Source of the DNA: Rickettsiales bacterium
GTDB taxonomy: Bacteria > Pseudomonadota > Alphaproteobacteria > Rickettsiales > UBA3002
Reading direction: 5' to 3'
NCBI GenBank assembly: GCA_046154225.1
Contig: JBJXEM010000013.1
Span: forward strand, 27,388 to 91,387
Length of the DNA stretch: 64,000 nt
In this document: in pieces, positions 56,683-64,000 of the stretch
How the letters are laid out: the number at the start of each line of letters is the position of its first letter
How positions within the stretch are numbered: the stretch's first letter is position 1
Position numbers and translations under genes: made by a program
The notes under the pieces: generated by a model
Database searches by the model: none
Seen by the model: the letters and a program-made list of their open reading frames with translations, nothing else
Told to the model about the DNA's origin: nothing

Positions 56683-60879
<4,197 letters not shown>

Positions 60880-60903
60880 TCACCCTTTCAACTTCCATTT
60901 TCG

Positions 60904-60992
60904 TGTCATCCCGGGCTTGTCCCGGGATCCCGCCATTCCACAAACTCAGTGCCAGCGGCGGGGCTGGATCCCGGGACAAGCCCGGGATGACA
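60904..60992. repeat. RPE/REP-like palindromic element with perfect 27-bp inverted arms
   Basis: TGTCATCCCGGGCTTGTCCCGGGATCC ... GGATCCCGGGACAAGCCCGGGATGACA. Confidence 0.9.
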
Positions 60993-60993
60993 A

Positions 60994-61089
60994 TTATTTT
61001 TTAACCGGTGATGCGATAGCAATTTTAATTTCATCAAACTGCTTGGTCGCCTGCATCTGACCAAAAATGTTCATCAACTCATTAGCCAT
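60994..61089 (-). other. 31-aa mini-ORF duplicating the RpoC N-terminus ([31 protein letters not shown])
   Basis: GGAG RBS; 27 of the first 28 residues identical to RpoC. Confidence 0.85.
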
Positions 61090-61118
61090 GGTTTACTCCA
61101 AATTATCCTTAAATCTCG

Positions 61119-61433
61119 TTAAGCACCCAATCCACGGGCAGAAGCGTCAAATCCGATGACTTCTTTGAAATCATCCGACAGTTTAATGGCATTAAGAAGA
61201 GCCGAAGGGTTTCCATCGCCCATCTCATTCAACAAAGTCGTCGCCTTATCCGCATGCGGCTTAGCTGCATTTTCTGCAGCATTAAGGGCTTGCTCGGCTT
61301 TAGAGACGGTTTGCTGAGCTTTAGCGTGTGCTTGAAGCGCAGCTTTTAAACCCGCGTTTTCTTCCACCGCATTACGCAACCAGCTTAACGCTTCATCCCT
61401 AGGCATTGTGGTAAAATTAACTTTCTCAACCAT
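61119..61433 (-). CDS. Hypothetical Ala-rich helical protein inserted between rpoB and rpoC
   Basis: ATG 2 nt after the rpoB stop, AAGGAGG RBS inside the rpoB end; visibly AT-richer than the flanks. Confidence 0.75.
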   Translation of the reverse strand: MVEKVNFTTMPRDEALSWLRNAVEENAGLKAALQAHAKAQQTVSKAEQALNAAENAAKPHADKATTLLNEMGDGNPSALLNAIKLSDDFKEVIGFDASARGLGA

Positions 61434-61435
61434 GA

Positions 61436-64000
<2,565 letters not shown>

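Follow-up and report, generated by a model that had tools for sequence, protein, structure and literature searches.

A truncated second start of rpoC between rpoB and rpoC, a probable scar of horizontal insertion in a Rickettsiales genome

The junction between rpoB and rpoC is among the most conserved gene adjacencies in bacteria. Integrative islands bring with them a copy of one end of the gene they target, as in the case of the 3' ends of tRNA genes at attL and attR; they depend on a site-specific integrase, and the copy borne by the element restores the gene. Attenuator leader peptides and upstream ORFs (uORFs), for their part, are short translated ORFs lying directly before a strong RNA hairpin and the gene that is regulated. 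Displaced orphan fragments derived from incoming cassettes are reported, in the excerpted sections of PMC5361080, from the T6SS effector-immunity arrays of Vibrio cholerae and from orphan Rhs/CDI toxin tips. Homology-facilitated illegitimate recombination (HFIR) and double illegitimate recombination upon uptake of foreign DNA are known from Acinetobacter, Streptococcus pneumoniae, Pseudomonas stutzeri and conjugation in E. coli, as far as the excerpts of PMC3240628 and PMC5361080 go, and illegitimate recombination of this kind has been invoked for insertions that displace, yet keep, resident genes (same excerpt of PMC5361080). A further class of sequences bearing on the present case is that of REPINs, which the abridged texts of PMC3337134 and PMC3116915 define as doublets of REP sequences moved by RAYT transposases.

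Here, I describe a second, truncated start of rpoC that lies between rpoB and an intact rpoC, and I argue that this stub is probably a recombination scar left by a horizontal insertion, with no gene having been made for its own sake. The locus sits in the window, i.e. the whole stretch of 64,000 nucleotides that was analysed, and is read on the minus strand. The 3' part of rpoB (61436..64000, 854 codons, Pfam RNA_pol_Rpb2_6/3/7/45), which extends past the window edge, terminates with the stop codon TAG at 61438..61436. Two nucleotides past that stop lies the ATG of ORF104 (61119..61433), an orphan ORF of 104 amino acids, followed by a 29-nt spacer with a GGAG ribosome-binding site (61090..61118) and by the stub (60994..61089), which is made of 31 codons and TAA; codons 1-28 of rpoC correspond to 61089..61006, the remaining three encoding VKK. 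Thirteen nucleotides (TTAAAAAATAATT, 60992..61004) separate the end of the similarity (CCGG) from an 87-bp REPIN-like palindromic element, to which no strand is assigned (60905..60991). A resident 28-nt spacer (60877..60904) holding the rpoC ribosome-binding site (GAAAGGGTGAGAC) precedes the resident rpoC (56683..60876, 1397 amino acids, five RNA_pol_Rpb1 domains in Pfam), which is intact, retains its own ribosome-binding site and is the only rpoC in this genome. The stub is the right-hand end of a low-GC block (approximately 60992-61480) that includes ORF104 and perhaps the last 14 codons of rpoB, and that is flanked by rpoB on one side and, on the other, by the palindromic element preceding rpoC. 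No integrase gene is present between rpoB and rpoC according to the ORF list and Pfam.

A previous interpretation made without database searches, hereafter the sequence-only reading, had described the stub as a synonymously recoded copy of the RpoC N-terminus, and its figures hold on recounting. Four features had escaped it: ORF104 between rpoB and the stub, the 87-bp palindromic repeat before rpoC, the low GC of the block, and the exact coincidence of the start of the similarity with the ATG. Over codons 1-28, 66 of 84 nucleotides are identical to the start of rpoC, with 17 synonymous codon differences and one replacement (A14 in the stub, S14 in the resident copy); the distance from start to start is 213 nt, GGAG is found 6 nt ahead of the stub ATG, and TAA follows the thirty-first codon. 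By the Nei-Gojobori method, the comparison of stub and resident yields 17 synonymous differences over 15.3 sites and a single non-synonymous one over 68.7 sites, and a repeat search returns the pair as a 92-nt direct repeat of 78% identity. The same reading held that a neutrally decaying duplicate would not show such a bias, and rightly so, the probability of at most one replacement among 18 random substitutions being 4e-12. The similarity begins exactly at the ATG and stops after CCGG at 61005, the VKK tail and the stop codon of the stub having been created by the junction. The regions upstream of the two starts cannot be aligned, as would be expected of orthologous genes with diverged spacers and not of a local duplication. 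A duplication of the resident rpoC start followed by AT-biased synonymous drift, the peptide being held by selection, would agree with the 10 of 17 synonymous differences at which the stub has A or T and the resident G or C, but at six of the 17 the difference is reversed (including CAG for CAA three times), and the stub is farther from the resident than the members of any congener pair are from each other, so that a very old event shared by no congener would be needed. In view of these points and of the sharp boundary at the ATG, an origin by local duplication is exceedingly improbable.

The 28 rpoC-derived residues of the stub are identical to the RpoC N-terminus of two congeners (G001 and G014), and the RpoC N-termini of other genera are unlike the stub peptide at several positions. 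The base composition of the block stands apart from that of its surroundings: GC3 is 0.41 in ORF104 and 0.50 in the stub, versus 0.72 in rpoB and 0.75 in rpoC, in a genome with a GC content of 0.57, and the GC3 of rpoB stays normal to within 90 nt of its stop. Along the same line, the codons of the stub include AAT, TTT (twice), ATT (three times) and GAT, the same preference as that of ORF104 (AAT 6:2, GAT 5:1). The resident rpoC prefers AAC (40:2) and TTC (34:6), and the rpoC heads of 12 out of 12 congeners favour AAC and TTC, with a GC3 of 0.69-0.84. In other genera of the same family, rpoC heads have a GC3 of 0.53-0.72 and use TTT, AAT and ATT, which makes a lower-GC relative plausible as donor. 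Synonymous divergence was counted against 13 congener genomes representing 14 loci (G014 also appears as L040): the stub differs from congeners at 13-18 synonymous codons, and congeners differ from one another at 0-13; pS is 0.87-1.21 between stub and genus, and 0.12-0.85 within the genus. The 5' end of the resident rpoC is within the range of the genus: it matches congeners at 64-78 of its 84 nt.

GC3, codon usage, the failure to find ORF104 in 60 relatives and the range of divergence are what would be expected of inserted DNA that is foreign to the recipient. One of the options offered by the sequence-only reading, namely that the stub is a homology arm belonging to a cassette that came from a diverged relative, gains support here from the composition, the codon usage, the orphan neighbour, the arrangement in congeners and a synonymous divergence exceeding that of any pair of the sampled congeners. 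Taken together, peptide identity, divergence, codon choice and the start of similarity at the ATG point to a donor from an unsampled lower-GC lineage near this genus, which would have carried ORF104 between its rpoB and rpoC. The bias of 17 synonymous changes to one replacement most likely arose while the stub belonged to a working full-length rpoC in the donor lineage. The 29-nt spacer may be read as the donor's own rpoC translation-initiation region; it contains TTTGGAGTAAACC, which is similar to the sequences upstream of rpoC in relatives, and it cannot be aligned with the resident upstream region. The codon signature of the stub has no match in metagenome_contigs, nor, with up to three mismatches, in 400 other genomes of the order.

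ORF104 (GC 0.47) was not found in 60 relatives. Family searches in Pfam, NCBIfam, PHROG and PADLOC gave nothing below E 0.01, the best feature score in the ESM Atlas (0.76) is lower than what chance hits reach, no match came from tblastn searches of phages and plasmids, and no credible match exists among 1.8 billion representative proteins. A single homolog (P0002, 88% identity, indel-free) was retrieved from 5.8 billion proteins; it is encoded on a JGI contig of 1515 bp, and a search for this contig with back-translated patterns in metagenome_contigs and genome_contigs found no relative. The rpoB codons AAG GAG GCG constitute the Shine-Dalgarno sequence serving ORF104, and given its length, this ribosome-binding site and the indel-free homolog at 88% identity, translation of ORF104, provided that it is a real gene, is very likely. 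Its AF2 model (pLDDT 70) is mostly helical, with helices at residues 12-72 and 77-93. The only match obtained among the representatives, P0003 (E 1.9e-10), was rejected: seven short stretches of it match residues 70-102 of ORF104, a pattern that is read as chance similarity amplified by repeats. P0003 is a protein of 1387 aa with about 12 tandem repeats of some 100 residues each, the core of which weakly resembles that part of ORF104, probably by chance.

The sequence-only reading had also put forward a survey of rpoB-rpoC spacers in relatives as a check. The survey covered 38 other genomes (14 congeners, 8 members of other genera in the family and 16 members of other families in the order) and a wider set of 80 loci, mostly alphaproteobacterial. 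In all 38 relatives and at 79 of the wider loci rpoB and rpoC adjoin; the spacers measure 2-203 nt in the 38 relatives, with the exception of G018 (317 nt) and G045 (545 nt), and the gap is 14-413 nt at 79 of the 80 wider loci. No second rpoC start was seen in the relatives examined, be it the 29 other genomes with an rpoC match, 9 further relatives or the 79 wider loci, and none of the 14 congeners has ORF104 or the stub at the junction. A case in point concerns G003 and G017, in which rpoB is followed by 10 nt, a palindrome of the same family and rpoC, without any insert; because these two carry the palindrome alone, the ancestral state here was likely rpoB, about 10 nt, palindrome and rpoC, the low-GC block having been added between rpoB and the palindrome. 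Related palindromes occur at the rpoB-rpoC site of G016 and G022. In congeners, 8-10 nt separate the rpoB stop from the element, as exemplified by GCT TAG TAATAACGCT in G017, and the 13 nt preceding the element in the window (T TAA AAAATAATT) may represent the last base of the recipient's old rpoB, its stop codon and its spacer. Most congeners (L012, L014, L016, L017, L020-L022) have, directly behind the rpoB stop, a GC-rich hairpin that lacks a clear U-run; a palindromic repeat takes its place in four other congeners. The site may be a conserved one for processing or attenuation. At the end of a G017 contig (G017:C41, L049), the last 55 nt, which cover the rpoC start, are 100% identical to those of the window, the rpoB tails being 81% identical; either the 5' end of rpoC was exchanged recently, or strains assembled together have left a k-mer overlap.

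The slot between rpoB and rpoC seems to accept unrelated small ORFs repeatedly, as three other genomes illustrate. In G018 (L015), the gap contains an orphan ORF of 101 aa; its ATG shares letters with the rpoB stop (TAATG), 12 nt separate its end from rpoC, and it matches only itself in 5.8 billion proteins. In G045 (L034), the gap is occupied by an ORF of about 150 aa, anchored to the membrane by an N-terminal helix, and an ORF of about 125 aa is found there in a Rhodobacteraceae MAG (L093). Neither G018 nor G045 has a duplication of rpoC. The rpoB codons mentioned above encode the conserved C-terminal (E)K-E-A and amount to a strong Shine-Dalgarno sequence immediately ahead of the stop (61436-61450; also in congeners); the starts of ORF104 and of the G018 ORF are found 4-7 nt downstream of it. 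A homology between these two ORFs was considered and discarded, the BLASTP match (E 0.075 over 44 residues) being collinear and weak and giving no evidence of common descent.

The 87-bp element consists of 31-nt arms, 97% complementary to each other, every arm being in itself a small hairpin, and it is predicted to fold at the RNA level into one long hairpin. Within the 2.18-Mb genome, the dispersed family to which it belongs counts 95 arm matches (at most 2 mismatches) and 49 paired elements; the paired elements are 69-136 bp long, 87 bp being the commonest length, and have sharp ends GTCAT...ATGAC (genome-wide in G000, e.g. on contigs C7, C20, C33 and C36), and the hairpin cores of the repeat family amount to 189 across the genome. 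In most paired elements, the arm variants of the two sides are unlike. Rfam over the palindrome returns only miRNA-precursor-like matches far below gathering scores, reflecting a generic hairpin. One match to a Y1-transposase (PF01797, 44.6 bits with a cut-off of 23) was obtained, in a frame of 206 aa at G000:C27:34771-35100 (L050), and no repeat cores occur within 1.2 kb of this candidate RAYT. Owing to the paired inverted hairpins, the many copies and the single Y1-transposase gene, the family looks like REPINs with a candidate RAYT; two inverted REP hairpins with a spacer, in many genomic copies, are indeed what is found. As for its part in the present case, the element does no more than adjoin the stub and mark where the old spacer lay, and it shows no sign of having caused the insertion.

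The foreign origin of the block is held with more confidence than the exact mechanism by which it came in, which may be pictured as follows. In the ancestor of the present organism, an uncultured alphaproteobacterium, rpoB would have been separated by about 10 nt from the REPIN-like palindrome, and the palindrome by about 30 nt from rpoC. A fragment would then have arrived from an unsampled lower-GC relative in which ORF104 was packed between rpoB and rpoC, bringing the end of the donor rpoB, ORF104, the donor ribosome-binding site of rpoC and rpoC codons 1-28. Its left end would have joined within or at the end of rpoB, and its right end illegitimately just upstream of the palindrome, with no crossover inside rpoC. 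Such an event would have spared the palindrome as well as the resident rpoC with its ribosome-binding site, and the donor rpoC start would have remained as a stub of 31 codons ended by a stop made at the junction. Overall, this would be a one-sided homologous plus illegitimate recombination, resembling homology-facilitated or double illegitimate recombination.

With regard to the right end, the site is non-homologous: the similarity stops at 61005 and is followed by the 13 nt and the palindrome, upstream of rpoC. The longest identical run between the two rpoC starts is 8 nt, far under the minimal efficient processing segment for RecA recombination, which the excerpt of PMC4824099 places above 40 bp; a second crossover in rpoC would hence not be expected, and the same divergence should keep the two copies from recombining now, making the repeat stable. 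With regard to the left end, the last 14 codons of rpoB (61439..61480) are possibly donor-derived and a candidate zone for the left crossover. Five of these 14 (AGG, TTG, GTA, TTA, GTA) are unused by 12 congeners at the respective positions, versus 19 of 296 upstream, and the protein is unaltered. The excess of private codons (Fisher one-sided p = 0.002) refers to a stretch chosen post hoc, another stretch of 14 codons also reaching five, and the TTA occurs in G017 too, which was examined later. A crossover in these last codons is unplaceable because the protein is identical, and the identity profiles of rpoB and rpoC fail to place crossovers because the congeners are all approximately 80-87% identical. 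A homologous anchor in rpoB itself is hard to explain if the donor rpoB diverged as much as the donor rpoC.

The same final structure would result from a transfer in the reverse direction, ORF104 and the stub being native and the palindrome with the present rpoC having come from a congener, in replacement of the old rpoC from codon 29 onwards. An exchange of this sort might also be reflected in the 55-nt identity to G017, found despite rpoB tails that are 81% identical; that identity, however, sits where a contig ends, and co-assembly of strains may have produced it as a k-mer overlap. Moreover, rpoB and rpoC have the composition of the genome, from which ORF104 and the stub depart; a search of 23 congeners did not find ORF104, and a whole rpoC of 4.2 kb would have to be replaced. 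A native block with an acquired rpoC is accordingly very unlikely, and an incoming block remains the preferred reading.

Contigs from four public runs of one study were compared with the window over 60650-61650, runs X1-X3 coming from biofilter samples in which the organism occurs. Parts of this range lack cover in runs X2-X4 and 16 further runs contain small shares only, from which no conclusion is drawn; no RNA run contains the locus. X1 record 7 spans 60964-61604 (arm, 13 nt, stub, ORF104, rpoB) with 2 differences, and X1 record 6 spans 60730-60973 (rpoC, spacer, left arm, loop) with none; X2 record 15 (60772-60990: rpoC, spacer, left arm, loop and nearly all of the right arm) is likewise without differences, as are X2 record 16 and X3 record 23, in which ORF104 is joined to rpoB. 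The sequence-only reading had named a misassembly as the outcome to be drawn if reads did not span the junctions. Each junction does occur on run contigs, but no run contig has at least 31 letters on both sides of the outer end of the right arm, so that the link between stub and element rests on the assembly of the window and on the universal rpoB-rpoC adjacency; the runs maybe include the genome's own sample, and their support is therefore not independent. A misjoin through the repeat arm, by which rpoB, ORF104 and the stub would not truly lie beside the palindrome and rpoC, would fit the break of the run contigs inside the element and the nature of the genome, a 64-contig assembly from a metagenome-type sample in which the arms occur about 95 times. 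Against it, the truncated stub, an arm, ORF104 and this genome's rpoB are all on X1 record 7, and as this is a single contig, the stub is real and its rpoB needs an rpoC downstream; there is a single rpoC in the genome, and rpoC follows rpoB throughout the relatives and the 79 wider loci. The two pieces have comparable depths (8.6 and 5.5), the 87-bp element is shorter than usual reads, and the exact arm variant is present in just 9 of the 95 matches, two of them at this locus. An assembly artefact is thus quite unlikely.

The stub probably makes a peptide of 31 residues, as predicted from its position inside the rpoBC transcript with a good ribosome-binding site. Pfam assigns no family to this product, which has no Rpb1 domain architecture and corresponds to RpoC residues 1-28 only. 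The other option of the sequence-only reading was that the peptide is translated and selected, as a beta-prime mimic or a leader peptide. In the form weighed here, it would act either as a mimic of the beta-prime N-terminus, which meets the beta subunit in core assembly, or as a uORF opening the hairpin and tuning rpoC, alone or with ORF104. Consistent with selection are the intact ATG and the well-spaced GGAG inside the rpoBC operon, a peptide free of replacements when compared with the RpoC N-termini of G001 and G014, the position of the stop 2 nt before a hairpin with 31-nt arms, and the participation of the start-codon regions of both copies, together with the hairpin, in the predicted minimum-energy fold. 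Yet a stub with its start codon and ribosome-binding site intact, and without replacement vs two congeners, is predicted equally by a recent insertion and by selection on the peptide. Purifying selection on the donor side explains the synonymous bias, and therefore a selected peptide gains nothing from it; the VKK tail and the stop are products of the junction, no second copy was seen in any set of the junction survey, and the exact sequence is missing from a collection of 15 billion proteins. Nor does the coding strand carry an intrinsic terminator over 60600-61700, and the hairpin, for its part, is a dispersed repeat with about 49 copies, at variance with what defines a leader peptide. A promoter-like site within the stub scores 9/12, which is the chance level for the region. 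Selection on the translated peptide is quite unlikely, and its extension to a small RNA-polymerase-directed module, in which ORF104 and the 31-aa peptide would act on core assembly or, via the hairpin, on rpoC translation, the stub being selected, is a distinctly unlikely proposition. No function needs to be assumed for the stub, and a scar of insertion is the reading retained here.

To sum up, the locus would provide a natural example of DNA too diverged for an ordinary double crossover and still entering a core operon. It also implies that synonymous bias, even if strong, is no sure sign of selection on the copy when seen in a tandem partial copy, and, since the C-terminal codons of rpoB supply a ready ribosome-binding site, small genes may find the slot that follows them a favourable place to land. 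In practical terms, the case is of modest value, namely as a word of caution to annotators and to users of dN/dS-style arguments on fragments.

Compared with integrative islands, the proposed event would likewise have brought in a diverged, incomplete copy of the target gene, which now stands in tandem with the gene itself; unlike islands, no integrase gene lies between rpoB and rpoC, and the resident copy remains the functional one. The stub shares with leader peptides the position of a short ORF directly upstream of a strong hairpin and of rpoC, but no terminator/antiterminator alternative was found over 60600-61700, relatives show no conservation of it, and its sequence is explained by descent from rpoC. 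The 87-bp element resembles REPINs in being made of two inverted short hairpin-forming repeats with a spacer, in about 49 paired copies, and departs from typical REPIN-RAYT systems in that the candidate RAYT is without flanking repeats within 1.2 kb. As with the T6SS, Rhs and CDI orphans, in the form in which the excerpted source presents them, a module with a conserved arm would have been added beside a resident gene, a partial and diverged tandem copy staying behind. Those orphans are 3' ends of polymorphic toxins accompanied by immunity genes and play a role in competition, whereas the fragment at hand is the 5' end of an essential housekeeping gene; unlike in that excerpt, the truncated copy here would be the incoming one and not the resident. 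The join, finally, is like HFIR as the excerpted sources portray it: foreign DNA, putatively flanked by homologous sequence on one side and joined non-homologously on the other, a small insertion, and neither integrase nor transposase. The HFIR cases contained in those excerpts come from laboratory settings with selectable markers, whereas here the event is deduced from one natural genome. The kind of event is known, and what is unusual is its location inside the rpoBC core operon, together with a stub that documents its own origin.
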